Positions 2,834 to 64,000 of a DNA stretch of 64,000 nucleotides are shown in pieces. The notes below the pieces were generated by a model. That model worked only from the letters and a program-made list of their open reading frames with translations, was not told where the DNA came from and did not search any database. Each line of letters starts with the position of its first letter. The first letter of the stretch is position 1. Location of the stretch: positions 1-64,000 of the forward strand of contig JABVCE010000014.1 in NCBI GenBank assembly GCA_014905635.1, read 5' to 3'. Source of the DNA: Scenedesmus sp. PABB004. Lineage: Eukaryota. A program made the translations under genes and the position numbers.

Positions 2834-3415
2834 CTGCAGGGGCCGGGGGGTCCGCGGCCGGGCTTGCTGCGACCCCGGCTGGCTGCGTGTCGCGCCTCTT
2901 CTGCAGCGTGCAAGGTTGGGCGGTGTCCCCCCGTGCCGCGGGGCTGGTGTCTGCGTGTTTGTCGTCGCGCGGCGAGGGGGCTGCAGCCGATGGGGCCGGC
3001 CCTGGCGCCGCCGGCGTGTTTGGCGGCTGCACGCGCTCCGTGCGCGGCGGCTTGGCGTGCTGCCTGCCCGGTGGGGCGGCTTTCTCATCGGTGCGCGGCT
3101 TTCTCAGGGGTTTTTGCAGCAAAGCCAACTGCTGCCCCCTGGTGTGTGCGTGTGTCGTCGCGCGGCGCGGGGGCTGATGCCGCTGAGGACGGCCCCTGCC
3201 GCCGCCAGCGTGGATGGCGTTTGCGCGTGATCTCTGCGCGGAGGCTTGGAGCCGGTGCACCTCGCTGCACCGATGCCCGGTGCGGCTCGCCGCACCGGAA
3301 GGGGGGTGTGCGGCCTGATCTGCTGCTGCCCCTTTGATTGCGGGGCATCACCTGGTCTCCTTGGGCGCCCGTTGGGCGTTGGCCTCTGGCTGTGCCGTTG
3401 GGTGATGTGTGTGCC

Positions 3416-4735
3416 CCCTCCCGGGGGGCGCCGGGGCGCGGTTTTTCACGGGGGGTTGCTGCGCTATTCCCGTTGGAGTTTTTTTCAGTGGGCTGCCCCT
3501 GGGCCTCGGTCCTTGTCTGGTCACCCATTGTAACAAAAAAAAAAGAAAAAAAAGGGGAAACGGCGCCCGGCAGCGCCGCGCCGCGGCGCCCCCGAGCGGC
3601 GCGCGCGCGGGCGGCGCGCGGCCCGCGGCGCGGCGCGGCCGCCGGCGGCCCACCTCGGCGGCGCAGCGCGTGGAGGGGCAGCACGTTGGAGCCCCGCACC
3701 TCCGCTCCGCAGGGGCGGCGGGGCAGGGGAAACGGCGCCCGGCAGCGCCGCGCCGCGGCGCCGCCGAGCGGCGCGCGCGCGCGGGCGGCGCGCGGCCCGC
3801 GGCGCGGCGCGGCCGCCGGCGGCCGACCTCTCACTGGGCGACAGCAGCAGCTGGTTTTTTTTTTGTTTTGTTTTTGTTACAATGGGTGACCAGACAAGGA
3901 CCGAAGCCCAGGGGCAGCCCATTGCAGCAGCTGGTCGAGCTGCGCGAGGCTGGCCTCGTACTCCTCCGCCCGGCTCGCCGCCTGCTGCTGCGCAGTGCTG
4001 CCGGCAGGCTGGGTGGCCCCCTCTCGGGGGCGCCGGGGCGCGGTTTTTCACGAGGGGTTGCTGCGCTCTTCCCGTTGGAGTTTTTTTCAATGGGCTGCCC
4101 CTGGGCCTCGGTCCTTGTCTGGTCACCCATTGTAACAAAAAAAAAAGAAAAAAAAGGGGAAACGGCGCCCGGCAGCGCCGCGCCGCGGCGCCCCCGAGCG
4201 GCGCGCGCGCGGGCGGCGCGCGGCCCGCGGCGCGGCGCGGCCGCCGGCGGCCCACCTCGGCGGCGCAGCGCGTGGCGGGGCAGCACGTTGGAGCCCCGCA
4301 CCTCCGCTCCGCAGGGGCGGCGGGGCAGGGGAAACGGCGCCCGGCAGCGCCGCGCCGCGGCGCCGCCGAGCGGCGCGCGCGCGGGCGGCGCGCGGCCCGC
4401 GGCGCGGCGCGGCCGCCGGCGGCCGACCTCTCACTGGGCGACAGCAGCAGCTGGTGTTTTTTTTGTTTTGTTTTTGTTACAATGGGTGACCAGACAAGGA
4501 CCGAAGCCCAGGGGCAGCCCATTGCAGCAGCTGGTCGAGCTGCGCGAGGCTGGCCTCGTACTCCTCCGCCCGGCTCGCCGCCTGCTGCTGCGCAGTGCTG
4601 CCGGCAGGCTGGGTGGCCCCCTCTCGGGGGCGCCGGGGCGCGGTTTTTCACGAGGGGTTGCTGCGCTCTTCCCGTTGGAGTTTTTTTCAATGGGCTGCCC
4701 CTGGGCCTCGGTCCTTGTCTGGTCACCCGTTGTAA
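3416..4735. repeat. 600-bp tandem duplication (LINE 3' end + satellite + LINE 3' stub)
   Basis: 3416-4015 is repeated at 4016-4615, with a third partial copy from 4616. Confidence 0.85.
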
Positions 4736-5004
4736 CAAACAAAAAAAAAAAGGCTGGGTGGCCCGCCCCAGGGAGAGAACGACCGTGCGCTGGCCGCCCG
4801 GCCTCAGCTCCGGGCCCATGGGGATGGGGCCCCGCTTCGGCCGGAGCCGCAGCAGAACGTCGGGAGAAAGGCTCCATGCGGGGCCGTCAGCAGGGCTTCC
4901 ATCCCAGCGCCGGGCCGAACGAGCGCTCCTGGCGCTCCTGGGGCCGGCGCCAGCTGCAGCTGCTGCTGCAGCAGCAGCAGCAACCCTCGGCGGCCACGGC
5001 CGTT

Positions 5005-6718: not shown

Positions 6719-9700
6719 ATGGACTTCGAGAAGTTTGGCGTCGAGCGCTTCACCGGCTCCAACTACGTCACGTGGAGCACCAAGATAACCTTCTACCTCA
6801 AGCTCAAGGGCTTCTATGGCGCGCTCATCGACGCGCCGCCGCCCGGCAACGACGCCGACGCCGTGGACGCCGCGCCCGCGCGCGACGCCGCGCGGGACGA
6901 CAAGGCCCTCGCCGCCGTCGTCCTCTCCGTCGACAACAAGATCTTGCCGCTCATCCAAACGTGCACCACCGCCAAGGAGGCGTGGGACAAGCTCGCCAAC
7001 ATGTACCACACCCAAAACACGGCAAGCATCGTGCGCTTCAAGCACGAGATGAGCACCCTCGCCAAGGGCAACACCGAGACCATCACGGCCTTTGCCGGCC
7101 GCGCGTACGCGCTCAAGGACAACCTCATCTCCGCCGGCGCCACGGTGGACGACATGGACATCTCGCTCGCCATGCTCGACAAGCTCCCGAGCGCTTACGA
7201 GGTCACCAAGAAGATCATCATGAGCAAGAAGCCCTTCCCCACGCTCGAGGAGGTCATCTCCGAGCTCTTGACCGTGGAGGCGCAAACCCCGGCCAACACC
7301 GAGAAGGCCTACTGTGCGACCGCGCCGCGGCCCAAGTTCAAGCCGCTCAACAAGACGTTCAACCCGCGCTTCAACAAGCCCTTCAACCCGCGCGCCCATG
7401 CTCGGCGCGTCGCGCTTCGTCAACCCGCCGCGCCCGTTCAACGGCGGCGGCCCGCCCGGCGGCAACCGGCCGCGCTTCGGCGCGTCCAAGGACGCCAAGG
7501 ACGTGTGCTACTATTGCAAGAAGCCCGGTCACTTCATCGGTGAGTGCCGCGAGCGCTTCGCGGCCGAGGCGCGCAAGGGCGCGCCCGGCACCGAGCGGCG
7601 CGAGGTGGCGTGGACCGCCACCACGCTCGCGCCCGACTATGACAACCCGGACTACGCGTGCACGTGGTTCATCGACTCGGGGGCCGAGCGCCACATCACC
7701 AACGACGCCGGCGACCTCATCAACCCCAAGCCGTGCTCGACCAAGGTCATCGTGGGCACCGGCGAGGTGGTCGCCGCCGAGTTCGAGGGCGACACCATCT
7801 TGCACGAGTCCAACGTCATCTCGCGGCGCATCGTGCTCCGCCGCGTGCTCTACATCCCCGGCTTTGCGGCCAAGCTCGTCTCCATCAAGATGGCCAAGCT
7901 CGCCGGCGCGACGTTCATCATGGAGGGCACAAGTGCGCCGTGCGCATGGGCGGCGAGACGATCGTCACCGCCATCGACGCGCCCAACGGCATCCCGTGCA
8001 TCGTGAGCAACACGCTCCGCGGCTCCCCGAGCCCGGCGCTCATCGCCAAAGAGGCGCCCGAGGTGTGGCACGCGCGCTTCGGCCACCTCGGCTACGCTAA
8101 CCTCGAGCGCGCCGCCAAGCACGGCATGGTGACCGGCATGGACCTCACGACCACCGACTTCAAGGCGCTCCCCATGTGCGAGCCGTGCGTGATGGGCAAG
8201 ACGACGCGCCTCCCCTTCGGTGAGTCCTCAACCGTGTACAACACGCCGCTCGCGCTCGTGAGCATGGACGTGTGCGGCCCCATGATCGAGCTCTCTTACG
8301 GCGGCGCCAAGTACGCCGCGACCTTCATCGACCACGCGACGGGCTACTCCATCGTGCGCACGCTCAAGAGCAAGGCCGACGTCGCGCCGGCCGTCAAGGA
8401 GGTGCTCAGCTACATGGAGAAGCAAACCGACGCGCACGTCAAGGCCGTCCGCACGGACAACGGCTCCGAGTACGTCAACGCCGACCTCTCCGGCTTCTTC
8501 AAGGACAAGGGCATCGCGCACCAAAAGACCATGCCCTACACGCCCGAGCAAAACGGCACCGCCGAGCGGCTCAACCGCACGCTCCTCAACAAGGTGCTCC
8601 CCATGATCTACGCCGCCGAGCTCCCGCCCGCGGCGTGGGGCGAGGCGATCGTGACCGCAAACTACCTTCGCAACCTCTCTCCCGTGAGCGGCAAGCCCAA
8701 GACGCCGTTTGAGGCCTTCTTCGGCCGCAAGCCCGACGTGTCAACGCTCCGCGTCTTTGGCGCCACGGCCTACGCCCACGTGCCCAAGGAGAAGAGGACC
8801 AAGCTCGAGCCGCACGCCGAGAAGGGCATCATGGTGGGCTACCCGGCCTTTGGCAAGGGTTACCGCATCCTCATGCCCGACGGCAACATCAAGTCGAGCC
8901 GCAACGTCGTCTTTGACGAGAGCAAGGTGCTCTCCAAGAGCTTCGCCAACTACGAGCCCCCGACGCTCATCGACCCCGACATCACCCGCTACGCCGCCGA
9001 GAAGTTCCCGGCGGACGACGCCTTTGAGGACGAGCCCGACTCCGGCGCGCACGACGGCGCGCCGCCGAGCGGCTCCCCGCCGGGCACCCCGGGCGGCTCC
9101 CCGCCCGCGAGCCCCGGCGGCTCCCCGCCCTCGAGCCCGGGCGGCTCGCCGCCGCCCGCGCCGAGCCCGGCACCCGAGAGCAACGACAACACGCCGGCGC
9201 CGACCACTGGCGGCACCGACGCCACCACCGGCGGCACCATCACGCGCTCGGGGCGCGTGTCGCGCAAGCCCGGTGAGTGGTGGAACGCCGGCGCCGCCGC
9301 CGCGCACTATGCGGGGCAGATCTTGCCCGACCCGGCCACGCGCACCGAGGCGCTCGGCCGGCTCGACGCGTCCAAGTGGGACGACGCCATGAACGAGGAG
9401 ATCGCCGCCCACGTGGCCAACAACACGTGGGAGCTCGACGTGCCGCCCGCCGGCATCAAAATCATCCCGACCAAGTGGGTCCTCACGACCAAGACCGACC
9501 TCGCCGGCATCATTGAGCGCTACAAGGGCCGCATCGTCGCCAAGGGCTTCCACCAGATCGAGGGCATCGACTACGACGAGGTCTTCGCCCCCGTCGGCAA
9601 GTACGCCACGCTGCGCACAGTGTTCGCGCTCGCCGCGGCGCACGACTACGAGATCATCCAAATTGACATTAAGAACGCCTTCCTCCAAGGCAACCTCGAG

Positions 9701-10898
9701 GAGGAGGTGTGGATCAGCCAACCCGAGGGCTACGACGACGGCTCTGGCCGCGCGTGCCGCCTTATCAAGCGAGCCTGTGGTGTAACTATCTTTATCTTTA
9801 TCTTTTATCAAAGCGCTCTACGGCCTCAAGCAGGCCCCGCGCGCGTGGCACTCGCGCCTGCACGAGGAGCTCACCAAGATGGGCTTCGCGCCGTCCAAGG
9901 CCGACGCATCGCTCTACGTCGGCACCTCCGGCGCGTACATCCTCATCTACGTCGACGACATCCTCATCATTGCGCGCAACCGCGCGCTCGCCGAGTCGGT
10001 CAAGGCGGAGCTCTTTGCCGCCTTCAAGACCCGCGACCTCGGCGAGGTCAGCCAGTACCTCGGCATGCACATCACGCGCGACCGCATCAACAAGACCATC
10101 AAGATCACCAACGAGAAGATGGTGACCGAGCTCGTCTCCAAGTACGGGCTCGCCGACTGCGCGCCCCGCGACATCCCCGTGAGCCTCGGCACCAAGCTCA
10201 CCAAGGACAACGGCGACCCGCTCGACACCGTGGCCTACCCCTACACGTCGCTCGTGGGAGCGCTCCTCTACCTCTCCATCACGGTGCGCCCCGACATCGC
10301 CTTTGCGGTGAGCGCGTTGACGCGCTTCATGTCCTGCCCCACGACCGTGCACTGGGGCGTGGCCAAGGGCGTGCTCCGCTACCTGGCCGGCACCACCGAC
10401 ATCGGCATCATCTACGGCGGCATCAAGGGCAGCCTGGACCTCAACGGCATGTGTGACTCGGACTACGCGGCCGACCTCGACACGCGCCGCTCGACCACCG
10501 GCTACGTCTTCACCCTCAACGGCGGCGCAATCACCTGGTCCAGCAAGAAGCAGCAGACCGTCGCAGCCTCCACCACCGAGGCCGAGTACATGGCCGCCTC
10601 CGCTGCGGTCAAGGAGGCCCTCTGGCTGCGCAAGCTCATGAGCGACCTCAAGGTCAACATCGGCGCCATCGACATCCTCTCCGACAACCAGGGTGCGATC
10701 AAGCTGCCGCGCAACCCCGTGTCCTCGCAGCGCTCGAAGCACATTGACGTCGCGCACCACTTTGCGCGCGAGCGCGTGGCCCGCGGCGAGGTCACGTTCC
10801 ACTACGTGCCCACGGCCGACAACATCGCCGACGCGCTCACCAAGCCGCTGGCGCTGTCAAAGTTTGTGGCGTGCCGCACCGGCATGGGCATGGTGTGA
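6719..10898 (+). pseudogene. Copia gag-pol polyprotein, three frameshifts
   Basis: Gag (FTGSNYVTW), CCHC knuckle CYYCKKPGHFIGEC, protease WFIDSGA, GAG-pre-integrase WHARFGH, integrase (VRTDNGSEY, PEQNGTAERLNRT), RT (IYVDD), RNase H (DSDYA, SKHID, ADALTK); frame breaks near 7390, 7930 and 9770. Confidence 0.93.
9769..9804 (+). mobile_element. 36-bp retroposed 3' stub with (TATCTT)3 tail
   Basis: Interrupts RT motif RLIK-ALYGLKQ; TGTAAC then (TATCTT)3; 7-bp TSD TTATCAA at 9762-9768 and 9805-9811. Confidence 0.8.
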
Positions 10899-11272: not shown

Positions 11273-12780
11273 GGCTCCAACGTGCTGCCCCGCCACGCGC
11301 TGCGCCGCCGAGGTCGGCCGCCGGCGGCCGCGCCGCGCCGCGGGCCCTGCGCCGCCCGCGCGCGCGCCGCTCGGCGGCGCCGCGGCGCGGCGCTGCCGGG
11401 CGCCGTTTCTCCTGCCCCGCCGCCCCTGCGGAGCGGAGGTGCGGGGCTCCAACGTGCTGCCCCGCCACGCGCTGCGCCGCCGAGGTCGGCCGCCGGCGGC
11501 CGCGCCGCGCCGCGGGCCCTGCGCCGCCCGCGCGCGCGCCGCTCGGCGGCGCCGCGGCGCGGCGCTGCCGGGCGCCGTTTCTCCTGCCCCGCCGCCCCTG
11601 CGGAGCGGAGGTGCGGGGCTCCAACGTGCTGCCCCGCCACGCGCTGCGCCGCCGAGGTCGGCCGCCGGCGGCCGCGCCGCGCCGCGGGCCCTGCGCCGCC
11701 CGCGCGCGCGCCGCTCGGCGGCGCCGCGGCGCGGCGCTGCCGGGCGCCGTTTCTCCTGCCCCGCCGCCCCTGCGGAGCGGAGGTGCGGGGCTCCAACGTG
11801 CTGCCCCGCCACGCGCTGCGCCGCCGAGGTCGGCCGCCGGCGGCCGCGCCGCGCCGCGGGCCCTGCGCCGCCCGCGCGCGCGCGCCGCTCGGCGGCGCCG
11901 CGGCGCGGCGCTGCCGGGCGCCGTTTCTCCTGCCCCGCCGCCCCTGCGGAGCGGAGGTGCGGGGCTCCAACGTGCTGCCCCGCCACGCGCTGCGCCGCCG
12001 AGGTCGGCCGCCGGCGGCCGCGCCGCGCCGCGGGCCCTGCGCCGCCCGCGCGCGCGCCGCTCGGCGGCGCCGCGGCGCGGCGCTGCCGGGCGCCGTTTCT
12101 CCTGCCCCGCCGCCCCTGCGGAGCGGAGGTGCGGGGCTCCAACGTGCTGCCCCGCCACGCGCTGCGCCGCCGAGGTCGGCCGCCGGCGGCCGCGCCGCGC
12201 CGCGGGCCCTGCGCCGCCCGCGCGCGCGCCGCTCGGCGGCGCCGCGGCGCGGCGCTGCCGGGCGCCGTTTCTCCTGCCCCGCCGCCCCTGCGGAGCGGAG
12301 GTGCGGGGCTCCAACGTGCTGCCCCGCCACGCGCTGCGCCGCCGAGGTCGGCCGCCGGCGGCCGCGCCGCGCCGCGGGCCCTGCGCCGCCCGCGCGCGCG
12401 CCGCTCGGCGGCGCCGCGGCGCGGCGCTGCCGGGCGCCGTTTCTCCTGCCCCGCCGCCCCTGCGGAGCGGAGGTGCGGGGCTCCAACGTGCTGCCCCGCC
12501 ACGCGCTGCGCCGCCGAGGTCGGCCGCCGGCGGCCGCGCCGCGCCGCGGGCCCTGCGCCGCCCGCGCGCGCGCCGCTCGGCGGCGCCGCGGCGCGGCGCT
12601 GCCGGGCGCCGTTTCTCCTGCCCCGCCGCCCCTGCGGAGCGGAGGTGCGGGGCTCCAACGTGCTGCCCCGCCACGCGCTGCGCTGCCGAGGTCGGCCGCC
12701 GGCGGCCGCGCCGCGCCGCGGGCCGCGCGCCGCCCGCGCGCGCGCCGCTCGGCGGCGCCGCGGCGCGGCGCTGCCGGGCG
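11273..12780. repeat. 172-bp satellite, ~8.7 near-identical copies
   Basis: Unit start GGCTCCAACGTG recurs at 11273, 11445, 11617, 11789, 11963, 12135, 12307, 12479, 12651. Confidence 0.95.
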
Positions 12781-13463
12781 CGGCGCTGCGCGCACATGGC
12801 CCTCGGTTACAGCCCTCGGTTACAGCCGTCTCGCGCACGCCGGCGGTTGCGCCGCGCGTTGCTCGCATGTTGTTGTGCATGTACACACGCCGCCGCACGC
12901 TGGCCAGCGGCCAACAACTCTGCCACCACGCCTAGGTACAAGCTACAAGGGCTCCACGCGCCCGCCCCTCGCGCGGCGCTGCCAAGGGCGTAGGCAGCGA
13001 GCAGCGAGCGGCGGGCCCCCCGTGCGCAGGCGCGCGTTGGCAGCGAGCGCACCAGGGGGGTGCGCCGCCGCCGCCCGGGGTCGGACGGTCCTCCCTCCTC
13101 CCCCCTCCAGCGAGCGATGCCGTGCCCCTCGCCTCCCCGCGGCGGCAGGCGGCGGCGCTCTCAGCCGCCGCCTGCCAGAGCAGCCCGCCCGACCGCGTGC
13201 CGCTCGGGTGCAAAACTTGGCCTCCAGAAATGGTACAGTGCGGGCCCCCGGGCGGCAGCGCGCAAGTGCGCGGGCGGTTGCCCGCGGCGCGGCCCCGCCC
13301 CCGCCCGGCCCTCGGGGCGCTGCTGCCGCGCGCCGCCCCGTCGCCTACCGCGAGCGGCGACAAACCGCGCGCCACGCGTGTACAACAAAAGCGCCGGCAA
13401 AAATCGGGCGCGCCGCGTCGCGCCCCGCGTGCTTGCGCACGCACGCGCGCGCGCGCGCGCGCC

Positions 13464-59067: not shown

Positions 59068-61046
59068 ATGCGCCTGGCTCGCGCAGCTGCTGCTGCCGCA
59101 CGCGTCGCGCCGCGCCTGAGCTACGTGCGGCCGGCCCTCGGTGCCCGGGGTGCGCTGCGAGCGGGAGCGAGCGTCGCCGACGGCCGCCAGCGCGCAGCGG
59201 GGGCGGGGCGGGGCTCGGCGTCGCGCCATCACACGCCACGGCTCCCGGGCGGGCTAGGGGCGCCGCGCCGGGCGGCGCTGGCGGCCCTGCCCCCGCCGGC
59301 GCTCCATGCGTGCCCCCGACCCCGCCCCGCCCCCGCGCAGGCCCCGCGTCGCCCGCCGCGCCGCACACGGCAGCAGCGGTCGCCGCCCGCGGCGGCGTGC
59401 GCGCCATGGCCAGCGCCGCGGCCACCGTGGAGGCGGAGGTGCGGCGCGGGCGGGCCGGCGGGCGCAATCGAGCCACCGCCGCGCCTCCCTCGCGCCGCCG
59501 CCGCCGCGAGCCGAGCGGCCGCGCCCGCGCCGCACATGCGCAGGCGCCGGCCAAGCCGCAGCCCATCTTCCGGGCTGACTACAAGCCGCCCGCGTACCTG
59601 GTCGACTCGGTGCGCCTCACGTTCGTGCTGGACGAGGACACCACGACCGTGACGAGCACGCTCGCGCTGCGGTCGAGCGGGCCAACCAACGGCGCGCCCG
59701 CGCCGCTGCTGCTCAACGGCCGCGACGACGTGAAGCTCGTCAGCGTGAAGGTCGCAGGTGCGCTGCGCCGCCGCGCTCGCTCGCGCGCACGGCGCGCGCT
59801 CGGCGGCGGGCAGCCGCGCGGCCCGCCGCAGCCCGCGCCCGTCCCTGCCCCCCCCCCCCCCCACGCACACACAAAAACACGCACACTCACATGCACACGC
59901 ACACGCGCACGCGCCGCGCCAGGCGAGGCGGTGCCTGAGGGCGACTACGAGGTCACGCCCAAGTCGCTGACGCTCAAGGCGCCGCCGGGGGGGCCGTTTG
60001 AGCTGGAGGTCGTGACGGCGCTGCGCCCCCAGGACAACAGCCTGCTGGAGGGGCTCTACAAGAGCGGCGGCAACTTCTGCACGCAGGCGCGCCCGCCCGC
60101 ACCGCGCGCGCGCCGCGCCGCGCCGTGTTGGTTCGTCTCGTCCTCCGCCTCGCCCTCCCTCCGCCCCGCCCCCCGCCGTCCCTCCCTCCCGCCCCGCGCG
60201 CGCCGCGCGCCGCGCGCCTCGCGCCGCGCCCGCGCGCCGCGCGCCGAGGGTTTAGGCCGAGCCCCGCCGCCGCGCCGCCGCAGTGCGAGGCGGAGGGGTT
60301 CCGTGGCATCACCTTTTTCCCTGACCGCCCTGACGTGATGGCGACCTACACCACGCGCATTGAGGCCGACAAGGCCCGCTACCCGGTGCTGCTGAGCAAC
60401 GGCAACCTCCAGGCCTCCGGCGACCTCCCCGGCGGCCGGCACTACGCGGTCTGGGAGGTGCGGGCGCGGTGGAGAGGGGGGGGGGGGGGGGGGGGGGCGC
60501 TGGCACGCGAGCTGGCGGGCGAGCTGGCGGGCGAGCTGGCGGGCGAGCTGGCGGCGCGCGCTGCGTGCGTGGCAGCGGCGCGCCGCGGCGGGGCGCACCC
60601 ACCCGCCCACGCCCACCCACGCCCACACCCTGACCCCCCCCCCCACCTTTATCAGGACCCCTTCCCCAAGCCCTGCTACCTCTTTGCCCTCGTCGCGGGC
60701 GACCTCGCGAGCAAGGAGGACACCTACACCACAGCCAGCGGCCGCGCGGTCACGCTGCGCATCTTCACAAACCCAGCCAACATCGGCCAGGCGCGCGCGC
60801 GCGCGCGGGACGCCCGGGGGTGGCGCGCAGCCCCCACCCGTGTGTCCCCCCCCCCCCCCCACACACACAATCCCACACCCACCCACACCCACACCCACCC
60901 ACACCCAACACACCCACACCCTTGACACACACCCAGGTTGACTTTGCGATGGAGAGCCTCAAAAAGTCGATGCGCTGGGACGAGGACGTGTACGGCCTCG
61001 AGTACGACCTGGTGCGCGCGACTGGAGCGCGTGTGCGCGCGCGTGG

Positions 61047-61115
<69 letters not shown>

Positions 61116-64000
61116 GTGGGTGTTTGCGGGCAGCCCCGTGCCCGCCGCCGCCCCTCCCGCGCCGTCCGTCCCTCGCCCGCCCGCCCGCCCCCGCGCACCG
61201 CCCACGCGCCCACCCACCCACCACCCGCCCGCGCGCCCTCCCAAACCTCCCGCTCCTCAACCCTAAACCCTGAACCCTGAAACCCTGCAAACCTAAACAC
61301 CCCCCCCCCGCAGGACCTGTTCAACATCGTGGCGGTCGACGACTTCAACATGGGCGCGATGGAGAACAAGAGCCTCAACATCTTCAACTCCCGCCTCGTC
61401 CTCGCAGACCCAGAGTCGTCCACGGACGGCGACTACGCGCGCATTGAGGTGCGGGGCGGGGCGTGGGCCAGGGCGGGGCGGTGTGCGCGTGTGTGGGTGG
61501 GCGTGGGCGGGGCGTGGTGGTGTGAGCAAGGGAGAGAGGGAAAGGAAGGGGGGAGGGAGGGAGGAGGCCGCACCGCGCGCTGCCCCGCCGCGGTCGCGCG
61601 TGCGCCGGCGGCGCGGCGCTTGTGCGCGCGCGCCGTGCGAATGCATTGTCTAGCACGGCTTGACAGCGCATTCGCACGCCGCTCGCCCACAAGCGCTGCG
61701 CCGCGGCCGCGCGCGGCGGGCAGGTCGGGCGGCGGGCAGGCGAGCTGGGGCAGCGCCGCCGCAGCAGCCCCGCGCCGGCGGCGCGGCGCTTGTGCGCGCG
61801 CGCCGTGCGAATGCATTGTCTAGCACGGCTTGACAGCGCATTCGCACGCCGCTCGCCCACAAGCGCTGCGCCGCGGCCGCGCGCGGCGGGCAGGTCGGGC
61901 GGCGGGCAGGCGAGCTGGGGCAGCGCCGCCGCAGCAGCCCCGCGCCGGCGGCGCGGCGCTTGTGCGCGCGCGCCGTGCGAATGCATTGTCTAGCACGGCT
62001 TGACAGCGCATTCGCACGCCGCTCGCCCACAAGCGCTGCGCCGCGGCCGCGCGCGGCGGGCAGGTCGGGCGGCGGGCAGGCGAGCTGGGGCAGCGCCGCC
62101 GCAGCAGCCCCGCGCCGGCGGCGCGGCGCTTGTGCGCGCGCGCCGTGCGAATGCATTGTCTAGCACGGCTTGACAGCGCATTCGCACGCCGCTCGCCCAC
62201 AAGCGCTGCGCCGCGGCCGCGCGCGGCGGGCAGGTCGGGCGGCGGGCAGGCGAGCTGGGGCAGCGCCGCCGCAGCAGCCCCGCGCCGGCGGCGCGGCGCT
62301 TGTGCGCGCGCGCCGTGCGAATGCATTGTCTAGCACGGCTTGACAGCGCATTCGCACGCCGCTCGCCCACAAGCGCTGCGCCGCGGCCGCGCGCGGCGGG
62401 CAGGTCGGGCGGCGGGCAGGCGAGCTGGGGCAGCGCCGCCGCAGCAGCCCCGCGCCGGCGGCGCGGCGCTTGTGCGCGCGCGCCGTGCGAATGCATTGTC
62501 TAGCACGGCTTGACAGCGCATTCGCACGCCGCTCGCCCACAAGCGCTGCGCCGCGGCCGCGCGCGGCGGGCAGGTCGGGCGGCGGGCAGGCGAGCTGGGG
62601 CAGCGCCGCCGCAGCAGCCCCGCGCCGGCGGCGCGGCGCTTGTGCGCGCGCGCCGTGCGAATGCATTGTCAAGCACGGCTTGACAGCGCATTCGCACGCC
62701 GCTCGCCCGCAAGCGCCGCGGCCGCGCGCGGCAGGCGGGTTGGGCGGCGGGCGGGCGAGCTGGGGCAGCGCCGCCGCAGCAGCCCCGCCGCGGCCGCGCG
62801 CGCGCGCCGGCGGCGCGGCGCTTGTGCGCGCGCGCCGTGCGAATGCATTGTCAAGCACGGCTTGACAGCGCATTCGCACGCCGCTCGCCCGCAAGCGCCG
62901 CGCTGCGGCCGTGCGCGGCCGGCGGGTCTGGCGCCGCGGTTCCTGCCTCGCCCGCTGTGATCCGCGCCCGCGGCGGCCGTGCTGGCGCTGACGCCCGCCC
63001 GCGCCCTGCCTCCGCCGCCGCCGTGCCCCGCTCCGCCCCGCCGCGCGGCGCAGGGCGTGGTGGGGCACGAGTACTTCCACAAGTGAGTAGCTGCTGCCGG
63101 GCCGGCCCAAACCCGCCAGCCCAGCCCTGACGGCCCACCGCAGCCGCGCGGCCGCCGCGGGGCAGCTCGCGCCGGTGCCGCGCCCCGACGCTGTCCCCCG
63201 CCGTCCCCGCCGCCGCCGCTCACGCCGCGCCGCGCGCCGCACGCGCGCCCGCCGTAGCTGGACCGGCAACCGCGTGACGTGCCGCGACTGGTTCCAACTC
63301 ACGCTCAAGGTCAGGCAGGGGCGGCCCCCGGCCCGCCGCCCGCCGCGCCGCACCCCCCCCCCTGCCCCGCCGGCCTCGCCGCCGCTGCCGCCGCCCGACG
63401 CGCGCCGCCGCCGCCCCCCGCCGCGCGCCCGCCGTGCCGCCGCGCAGGAGGGCCTGACCGTGTTCCGGGACCAGGGCTTCAGCGCCGACATGAACAGCAG
63501 GGCCGTGAAGCGCATCGAGGTGCGCGCGGCAGCGCGCCGCGGGAGCAGCGGGGGGCCGCGGCGGCGCGGCAGGGCGGCGCGCGGGCGGTGTGCGCGCGCC
63601 GAGGCCGCTCCCTCCCTGCACGCGCGGCGCGCCGCGCCGCGCGCGCGCCCACCCGCTCCTCGCTCCCGCCCTTCCTCCCTCACCCGCGCGCACGCCAGGA
63701 CGTCGCGGTGCTGCGCGCGAGCCAGTTCAGCGAGGACGCGGGGCCCATGGCGCACCCGATCCGCCCCGACAGCTACATCAAGATGGACAACTTTTACACA
63801 GTCACAGTCTACGAGAAGGTGCGTGCGCGCGCGTGTGCCTGTGTGACTGTGCGTGCCTGTGTTTGTGTGCGTGTGTGTGCCTGTGTGCGTGCCTGTGTGC
63901 CTGTGTGTGTCCGCGCGCCCGCGCCTGCGCGTGCCTGTGTGCGTGCGTGCGTGCGTGCGCGCGTGCGCGCGTCGGTGCCTCGCGCGCTGCGCCGCGCCGG
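59068..64000 (+). CDS. pepN: M1 aminopeptidase N (alanyl aminopeptidase), runs off the window end
   Basis: [88 protein letters not shown]. Confidence 0.96.
61048..61094. repeat. (TG)n microsatellite, intronic
   Basis: ~23 TG units in a pepN intron. Confidence 0.9.
61602..62905. repeat. 170-bp tandem array, each unit with a long hairpin (8 hairpins), in pepN intron 61449-63053
   Basis: TGTGCGCGCGCGCCGTGCGAATGC recurs at 61621, 61791, 61961, 62131, 62301, 62471, 62641, 62823. Confidence 0.95.

Follow-up and report, generated by a model that had tools for sequence, protein, structure and literature searches.

An intron of an aminopeptidase gene in the algal DNA analysed here, a stretch of 64 kb (the window), carries eight head-to-tail copies of a unit of about 170 bp, each built around a long imperfect palindrome. 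Six of the copies are identical, and the palindrome folds equally well on either strand. We conclude, with moderate confidence, that this array is a young minisatellite which arose in the intron by ordinary expansion of a palindromic repeat.

The array swells an intron of an aminopeptidase gene

An earlier note on this DNA had placed the array in an aminopeptidase intron just upstream of the HEXXH exon, and this location was confirmed. Based on translation and splice context, the exon with the GAMEN motif of an M1 aminopeptidase (PepN-like) lies at 61314..61448 on the plus strand, followed by a GT donor at 61449; using tblastn, it was assigned to query residues 308–397 of the Haematococcus PepN-like protein P0003. 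The host intron (61449..63053, plus strand, 1605 nt, GT..AG) is followed by the exon of the zinc-binding HEXXH motif (63054..63082, plus strand, translated GVVGHEYFH(N)), which corresponds to P0003 residues 397–406 with 90% identity. The residue numbering of P0003 continues from one exon to the next (397 to 397/398), so that no part of the coding sequence is lacking. In a protein search with the PepN exons, the best match reached 88%, Haematococcus, Volvox and Chlorella 86% and bacterial PepN 81–86%, none of them being identical, and judged by these similarities the gene appears only chlorophyte-like.

The array makes up 83% of the intron. Without it, the intron would measure 273 nt, compared to 138–299 nt for the eight other introns mapped in this gene; the array accounts for all of the excess length, an approximately sixfold swelling. 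A coding role of the array was considered and rejected: the long open frames are an effect of the 78% GC, one TAG occurs per unit, and the alignment of the aminopeptidase has no break at the intron. Given the intronic position, it is a fair inference that the array is transcribed together with the host pre-mRNA.

Six identical and two diverged copies

TRF detected the array at 61602-62933 (no strand assigned), with a period of 170, 7.8 copies, 96% matches and a score of 2378. The eight-copy array proposed earlier for 61602..62905 is thus real, but its end was set too early, as 62905 marks the end of the eighth hairpin and the repeat runs to approx. 62933. On the left side, the unit alignment revealed about 33 nt of linker-like sequence, starting at approx. 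61569. A unit-by-unit printout showed that units 1–6 (61602-62621, no strand assigned; 1020 bp) are identical letter for letter, pointing to a recent expansion. Copy 7 (62622-62803) is a variant of 182 nt, and copy 8 (62804 to approx. 62933) is partial. Since the six copies are identical while the two 3′ copies diverge, we infer a recent local amplification. The head-to-tail units of the 170-bp array exceed 10 bp and are highly identical to each other, as in a minisatellite or short satellite.

A 46-nt hairpin core was found eight times in the 64-kb window (six exact copies, two with one mismatch), always on the plus strand and within the array, against a chance expectation of 0.00 in 100 shuffles. 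According to the unit alignment, an 81-nt core differs between the two copy types at only 2 positions, compared to 4 substitutions and 2 indels outside this core in copy 7. This leans toward the core being kept, in numbers too small for a test. The rest of the unit includes a G-rich linker (61711..61771, plus strand, in unit 1), which recurs at +170 in units 2–6 and contains a loosely defined G-quadruplex motif (loops ≤12), a 5′-splice-site-like GGTCGG and a 3′-splice-site-like CGCAG. The linker G-quadruplexes were rejected as a distinctive feature: 7 are in linkers (loop ≤12), compared to 96 window-wide (1.5 per kb).

Six units without any difference are also the pattern of collapsed or consensus-polished repeats, and assembly errors are known to arise at tandem repeats (available text of PMC6868369). 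Nevertheless, it is very unlikely that a repeat which is in fact shorter or more heterogeneous was mis-assembled into this copy number or into six identical units. Copies 7 and 8, like the unique sequence on either side, are in register with the array, and a second array in the window (172 bp × 8.8, 11273-12781) consists of equally near-identical copies (99%). Arrays with large periods are common here, as four of them, with periods of 170–600, occupy about 4.8 kb of the 64 kb. The 172-bp unit folds no better than shuffled sequences (z −0.35, 71/200). Kinship between this array and the 170-bp unit was rejected: the local score of 51 compares to 43.5 ± 6.5 for shuffles, 29 of 200 of which reached at least 51, as did 98 of 300 random segments of the window.

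Each unit carries a long and stable hairpin

All pair counts and folds refer to hairpin 2 (61778..61874, plus strand, centre 61826). Its 39-nt arms pair without gaps in 33 Watson–Crick pairs and one G:U pair with 5 mismatches, exactly as counted in the earlier note, and the extension of about 8 bp claimed there exists as well, as pairing goes on for 8 more pairs past position 39. The stem thereby reaches 47 positions (40 Watson–Crick pairs, 2 G:U pairs, 5 mismatches), with looser pairing to approx. 56 positions (46 Watson–Crick pairs, 2 G:U pairs, 8 mismatches) and a hairpin loop of 3 nt (ACG). Expressed as an inverted repeat, the unit has arms of 54–58 nt which are 83% complementary and 3 nt apart. 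The proposed fold check of a unit turned out positive, since the 109-nt hairpin has a free energy of −86.4 kcal/mol (z −8.07; 0 of 200 shuffles as good). The same hairpin folded as DNA yielded −54.1 (z −6.38). The minus strand reaches −87.7 kcal/mol (z −6.92), equally stable as the plus strand, and the number of G:U pairs is 2 on the plus and 1 on the minus strand. Such equal folding is expected of a DNA palindrome, in contrast to an RNA under selection on one strand, and gives no sign of selection on the sense RNA.

In the remaining 61.5 kb of the window, 33 close inverted repeats were found; the longest 25 of these 33 are ≤42 nt long, 71–79% complementary and all GC low-complexity sequence. 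None of them comes close to the hairpin of the array. The hairpin core has a GC content of 60% in a window of 78% GC and is not simply compositional; it could be foreign, e.g., derived from a mobile element.

Six of the eight hairpins, all on the plus strand, fold locally in the MFE structure of the full 1605-nt intron. Hairpin 1 (61608..61704, centre 61656), with its 47-position stem and ACG loop, has 41 symmetric pairs there, hairpin 3 (61948..62044, centre 61996) has 42, hairpin 4 (62118..62214, centre 62166) has 41, hairpin 5 (62288..62384, centre 62336) has 42 and the variant hairpin 7 (62628..62725, centre 62676) has 38. The local hairpin is absent from this structure for hairpin 6 (62458..62554, centre 62506; 0 symmetric pairs) and for hairpin 8 (62810..62906, centre 62858; z −7.68). 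Compared to the identical copies, hairpin 7 has a T>A change which closes a mismatch and an A>G change which gives a wobble, and its outer 3′ arm has lost 5 nt. Hairpin 8 shares both core variants of hairpin 7 and has three further changes in the outer 3′ arm.

The earlier note had read these stem variants as preserving the pairing. While both changes are present as described (T>A turns a mismatch into A-T, A>G turns T-A into T.G), their value as evidence for selection on pairing did not hold up. As they are common to copies 7 and 8, each counts as one event, and the probability that two random substitutions are both non-disruptive is 0.08 (unweighted) to 0.18 (transitions to transversions weighted 2:1). 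Both changes are one-sided (n = 2), and neither the G:U asymmetry nor the compensatory changes that would indicate a structure kept on the transcribed strand were seen. If copies 7 and 8 were ancestral, the amplified form would have gained one mismatch and lost one wobble.

Are the hairpins a source of small RNAs?

A Dicer-like enzyme might cut the eight intronic hairpins into miRNA-like or hairpin-siRNA duplexes, in which case tandem amplification may raise the dose of one identical small RNA. This is possible, if doubtful. The stem of 47–56 positions is free of bulges, and each 21-bp window up to position 38 has between 1 and 4 mismatches and 0–1 G:U pairs, in agreement with the structural part of the criteria for plant-type miRNAs. 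The plant miRNA annotation guidelines of 2018 reportedly ask for a 20–24-nt duplex with ≤5 mismatches, ≤3 of them in asymmetric bulges, and no secondary stems. The very stable fold (z −8.07), the local folding of six of eight hairpins within the intron and their position on the sense strand of an intron of a housekeeping-type gene also point in this direction. However, structure alone is a poor predictor of miRNAs, strand asymmetry is absent, covariation is within chance, and six identical copies mean that the amplification is too recent for constraint to be visible. The unrelated 172-bp array, which has no hairpin, also leans away from a selected RNA.

No known RNA family was matched. Rfam returned 7 matches for 61000-63500 at E ≤ 1, all far below their gathering scores, including mir-4888 (28.6 bits, gathering score 90) and MIR9666 (24.4, gathering score 88). 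Target-like sites in the window for 89 21-mers of the hairpin (≤3 mismatches) numbered 37, compared to a shuffle mean of 68 (range 12–231, n = 20), and all 37 derive from the GC-rich outer stem. Of the 278 stop-to-stop ORFs in this stretch, the 86 longest gave Pfam matches among which Dicer-like and Argonaute proteins were absent. An intronic snoRNA cluster was rejected as well, since C, D and H boxes are absent from the sense strand (no consensus motif RTGATGA, TGATG, CTGA or ANANNA) and Rfam gave no snoRNA match at E ≤ 1. Intronic snoRNA gene clusters of Chlamydomonas, reportedly the topic of a paper by Chen et al. from 2008, going by its title, are likewise repeated small-RNA genes in introns, but the unit described here lacks these boxes.

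Precedents for small RNAs from introns exist. In Chlamydomonas, 9 of 18 high-confidence miRNAs are intronic, splicing is unnecessary for their processing, the Dicer DCL3 also cuts stem-loops of mRNAs, and intronic hairpins are the main source of miRNAs (available text of PMC4817775). The intronic precursors of C. reinhardtii (e.g., the DCL3-dependent cre-miR1157) are, like the hairpins here, stable stem-loops located in introns of protein-coding genes and oriented in sense. However, they are defined by sequenced small RNAs and DCL3 dependence. In the available part of PMC4817775, we found no miRNA precursor that was said to consist of identical hairpins in tandem. In mouse, the miRNA cluster in intron 10 of Sfmbt2 grew via tandem duplication of a repeat unit; according to the available passages (PMC3212979), this cluster, the miRNAs of which are expressed, spans 55–65 kb and is made up of B1 SINEs together with CA/TG repeats, compared to 1.3 kb of algal sequence here.

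Of the tandemly amplified, host-transcribed small-RNA cassette suggested earlier, the amplification, the intron site and the hairpin geometry were retained, while the argument from preserved pairs was dropped. It is quite unlikely that we see here the birth of a polycistronic small-RNA gene with eight near-identical Dicer substrates, in which a single miRNA-like or hairpin-siRNA species would be dosed by minisatellite copy number.

Possible descent from a mobile element

The unit essentially consists of two inverted arms with a 3-nt loop, i.e., it has terminal inverted repeats, and the GC content of its core (60%) is below the 78% of the surroundings. Both would fit a MITE, foldback or introner-like non-autonomous DNA element which inserted into the intron and later expanded in tandem. 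With a single unit, the intron would have 443 nt, still more than the 138–299 nt of the other eight, and the linkers contain a donor-like GGTCGG in each of units 1–6 and an acceptor-like CGCAG in each of units 1–7. Moreover, hairpins of MITEs are confusable with miRNA precursors, and satellites can arise from transposons (PMC3495686, PMC12628747 and PMC5932611, available passages). MITEs, foldback and introner-like elements resemble the unit in being short, non-coding, intronic and composed almost entirely of inverted arms.

Nevertheless, we consider descent from such an element, the alternative raised in the earlier note, unlikely. A second copy of the core was not found in the other 62.6 kb (≤3 mismatches in 46 nt or 16 nt; blastn with word size 7), a search range in which only very high dispersed copy numbers can be excluded. 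When the unit was compared with the window using blastn and the array was masked, the core was unmatched, and only the GC-rich linker and outer stem had matches, at about 70–80% where these were longer and at higher values where they were short. A target-site duplication was not recognisable by eye at the hairpin ends, where GC-rich, low-complexity flanks make short duplications uninterpretable. Metagenome contigs contained 0 matches to a 35-nt core pattern and to a looser palindrome pattern, and viral contigs contained 0 as well. The only match in contigs of prokaryote genomes, in Nocardia crassostreae, was rejected as a chance hit: it is a perfect, unrelated palindrome in which just 12 specified bases per arm coincide.

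Probable origin by repeat expansion

The explanation we favour, a young minisatellite built on a palindrome, requires a formerly ordinary intron with a stretch of about 170 bp, in which an imperfect palindrome of 47–56 bp was followed by a G-rich linker. Head-to-tail duplication of this stretch would have occurred by DNA-level processes, either replication slippage or template switching at the hairpin-forming sequence, probably followed by unequal exchange between copies. The diverged copies 7 and 8 at the 3′ end may go back to an older step, and the six identical copies would come from a very recent one. The array is presumably transcribed only within the aminopeptidase pre-mRNA and removed with the intron. 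The very stable RNA hairpin of each unit would then be a side effect of the palindromic DNA rather than a gene for a selected RNA; incidental cutting might occur if the organism has a Dicer.

Among the closest known counterparts are the intronic minisatellites or short satellites of chlorophyte genomes. In Chlamydomonas and Volvox, the density of tandem repeats is highest in introns among the site classes compared (available text of PMC3887541), and satellites together with transposons make up 7.8–25% of the compared core-Reinhardtinia genomes (Table 1 in the available text of PMC8226300). As in other intronic tandem repeats of chlorophytes, GC-rich units are arranged head-to-tail in an intron of a coding gene; in contrast to these, the unit here is long (170 bp) and built round a palindrome of 47–56 bp.

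Implications

As it stands, the array is what repeat instability ordinarily produces in an algal genome that is very rich in GC and prone to repeats. In practical terms, it is likely to be a length-polymorphic marker, and it is a hazard for assembly and gene models. The miRNAs of unicellular algae are young and are not known to be conserved between species. If the hairpins were processed, the array would be a small-RNA cluster caught at birth by minisatellite expansion. It would then bear on the origin of miRNA genes in unicellular algae, as an algal counterpart of the repeat-born Sfmbt2 cluster of the mouse.

The array and its host intron

The array was delimited at 61602-62933 by Tandem Repeats Finder, with a period of 170, 7.8 copies and 96% matches. 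Units 1-6 (61602-62621) are letter-for-letter identical, and unit 7 (62622-62803, 182 nt) differs by four substitutions in its linker, the loss of 5 nt and the gain of 12-17 nt at its end. The partial unit 8 grades into unique intron sequence near 62933, and on the other side similarity to the unit junction in its long form extends approximately 33 nt leftward from 61602. That the copies are an artefact of the assembly seems very improbable.

The host is an M1 (PepN-type) aminopeptidase gene, whose 5′ two-thirds lie on the + strand in the last 5 kb of the window. Using a PepN-like protein of Haematococcus lacustris (P0003) as tblastn query, ten exons were found between 59568 and 63818, with GT..AG borders wherever checked. 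The array lies between the exon with the end of the GAMEN region (61314-61448, + strand) and the exon encoding GVVGHEYFH(N) (63054-63082, + strand). Since the P0003 residue count continues unbroken over 61449-63053 (397 to 397/398), this stretch is a single intron without a hidden coding piece. It measures 1605 nt, versus 138-299 nt for the eight other mapped introns; the array makes up 83% of it, and the 273 nt left after subtraction fall within the range of the neighboring introns. The preceding intron contains repeats at 61048-61123 and 61258-61298: a (TG)38 microsatellite plus a brief telomere-like stretch of AACCCTA/AACCCTG units. In the P0003 model, the GAMEN motif is interrupted midway by 45 low-complexity residues that the gene in the window (61314-61448) lacks; they are probably a retained intron in the Haematococcus annotation.

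The hairpin

Each unit holds the same imperfect palindrome around a 3-nt loop. Over the first 39 positions from the loop, the stem has 33 Watson-Crick pairs, one G:U pair and five single mismatches without gaps, exactly as counted in the earlier note; at 47 positions the figures are 40, two and five, and pairing fades by about position 56. Folded as RNA, the 109-nt hairpin reaches −86.4 kcal/mol (z −8.07), and none of 200 dinucleotide shuffles was as good; as DNA, it reaches −54.1 (z −6.38). When the whole intron was folded to its energy minimum, six hairpins formed locally, the exceptions being hairpins 6 and 8, which had no symmetric pairs. All eight occurrences of the 46-nt hairpin core in the window lie inside the array (0.00 expected). 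The remaining 61.5 kb contain 33 close inverted repeats, none comparable: the longest 25 are at most 42 nt, 71-79% complementary and of GC low complexity. Based on these results, we conclude that the hairpin array is real and beyond a chance effect of composition, and that its anatomy was described correctly.

A mobile element as the source of the palindrome would fit the AT-richer hairpin core (60% GC) and the fact that one unit alone would already make the host intron the longest of those mapped. However, a second copy is absent from 62.6 kb of the window, and we consider this origin rather doubtful. Half-sites of the core were not found elsewhere in the window, and nothing related to the hairpin was detected in the metagenome, viral and prokaryote collections scanned. 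A perfect palindrome with 17-bp arms in a Nocardia crassostreae contig (L001, 2001-2040), which shares the 12 bases per arm fixed in a loose search pattern for the hairpin, was judged unrelated and terminator-like.

Other repeats in the window

Four large-period arrays (periods 292, 600, 172 and 170) occupy approximately 4.8 kb. The 172-bp array (11273-12781, 8.8 copies) has nearly the same period as the 170-bp array (61602-62933, 7.8 copies) and a similar copy number, and is unrelated in sequence; the near-equal periods may be coincidental or may reflect a preferred length, e.g., nucleosome spacing. As the 172-bp unit has no folding advantage over shuffles (z −0.35), arrays of such size and period arise in this window without a hairpin. 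Because large-period arrays thus form readily in the genome, the prior for a small RNA is lowered. Of all site classes in Chlamydomonas and Volvox, introns are the richest in tandem repeats (PMC3887541).

A Ty1/copia-type retroelement ORF lies at 7643-10895 (+ strand) and encodes gag-pre-integrase, integrase core, SH3-like and RVT_2 domains. The composite repeats on its flanks comprise a 292-bp unit (twice at 922-1505, and again at 3259-3550, 4015-4152 and 4615-4751), a 600-bp unit (2.2 copies, 3413-4751), the 172-bp array at 11273-12781 and extra copies of the 172-bp unit in reverse orientation (3553-3830 and 4155-4430, about 96% identity). Together they have the look of a satellite linked to a transposon, possibly located within long terminal repeats. 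The window has 78% G+C, extreme for a eukaryote, and nearly everywhere both strands can be read for several hundred codons without a stop, so ORF length is uninformative. Of the 86 stop-to-stop ORFs that are longest, only 11 gave a Pfam match, two of them belonging to the copia-type element (RVT_2, integrase and others); further matches are DnaJ, UbiA, Brix, Sugar_tr, Synaptobrevin, ATP-synt_Eps, IU_nuc_hydro and EDR2_C.

Sequence tests for a small RNA

Every 21-bp window of the stem out to position 38 has the structure expected of a plant-type miRNA precursor. An RNA selected on one strand usually has G:U pairs, seen as A.C mismatches on the opposite strand, whereas a DNA palindrome does not. 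The antisense hairpin is equally stable, at −87.7 (z −6.92) versus −86.4 (z −8.07) for the sense strand, with one versus two G:U pairs. Within the 39-nt stem, two changes are common to copies 7 and 8 (T.T mismatch to A-T; T-A to T.G), each a single event and neither compensatory. Among the 234 possible single stem substitutions, 28% (unweighted) to 43% (transitions favored 2:1) do not lower pairing, giving a chance of 0.08-0.18 that both changes would be neutral in this sense. The preserved pairing of the variants is therefore within chance. Position and diverged linkers suggest that copies 7 and 8 are the older form; if so, the step to the amplified form added one mismatch and removed one wobble, with no net change.

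Rfam (E ≤ 1) returned only sub-threshold matches, e.g., mir-4888 (28.6 bits, gathering 90) and MIR9666 (24.4, gathering 88), which are generic hairpin matches. Target prediction for the hairpin 21-mers gave 37 near-complementary sites in the window, fewer than the shuffle mean of 68. An intronic snoRNA cluster was rejected, as the sense strand of the unit has no snoRNA box. In Chlamydomonas, the introns and UTRs of coding genes are the source of most high-confidence miRNAs, whose production does not depend on splicing (PMC4817775). The array is like a Chlamydomonas intronic miRNA precursor in shape and, in architecture, like the miRNA cluster that arose from repeats in intron 10 of mouse Sfmbt2 (PMC3212979), but both classes are defined by sequenced small RNAs. 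The interpretation in the earlier note is borne out in part: structure allows a small-RNA reading, and the sequence-level tests lean neutral. For an RNA gene, the evidence from sequence is thin and mostly negative. A real small-RNA locus is possible but unlikely.

Origin of the array

The array both works like, and belongs to, intronic minisatellites. On balance, we slightly favor a young minisatellite born of palindrome slippage or exchange and spliced out with its intron. When replication exposes single-stranded DNA, a palindrome of such length can extrude a hairpin, and hairpin-forming palindromes are recognized replication obstacles which promote slippage and template switching. An initial duplication of the palindromic unit would have produced two copies, from which unequal exchange or slippage would very recently have generated the six identical units; the array would then be carried in the pre-mRNA and removed by the spliceosome. 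Such an array is of modest interest unless its hairpins prove to be processed into small RNAs.
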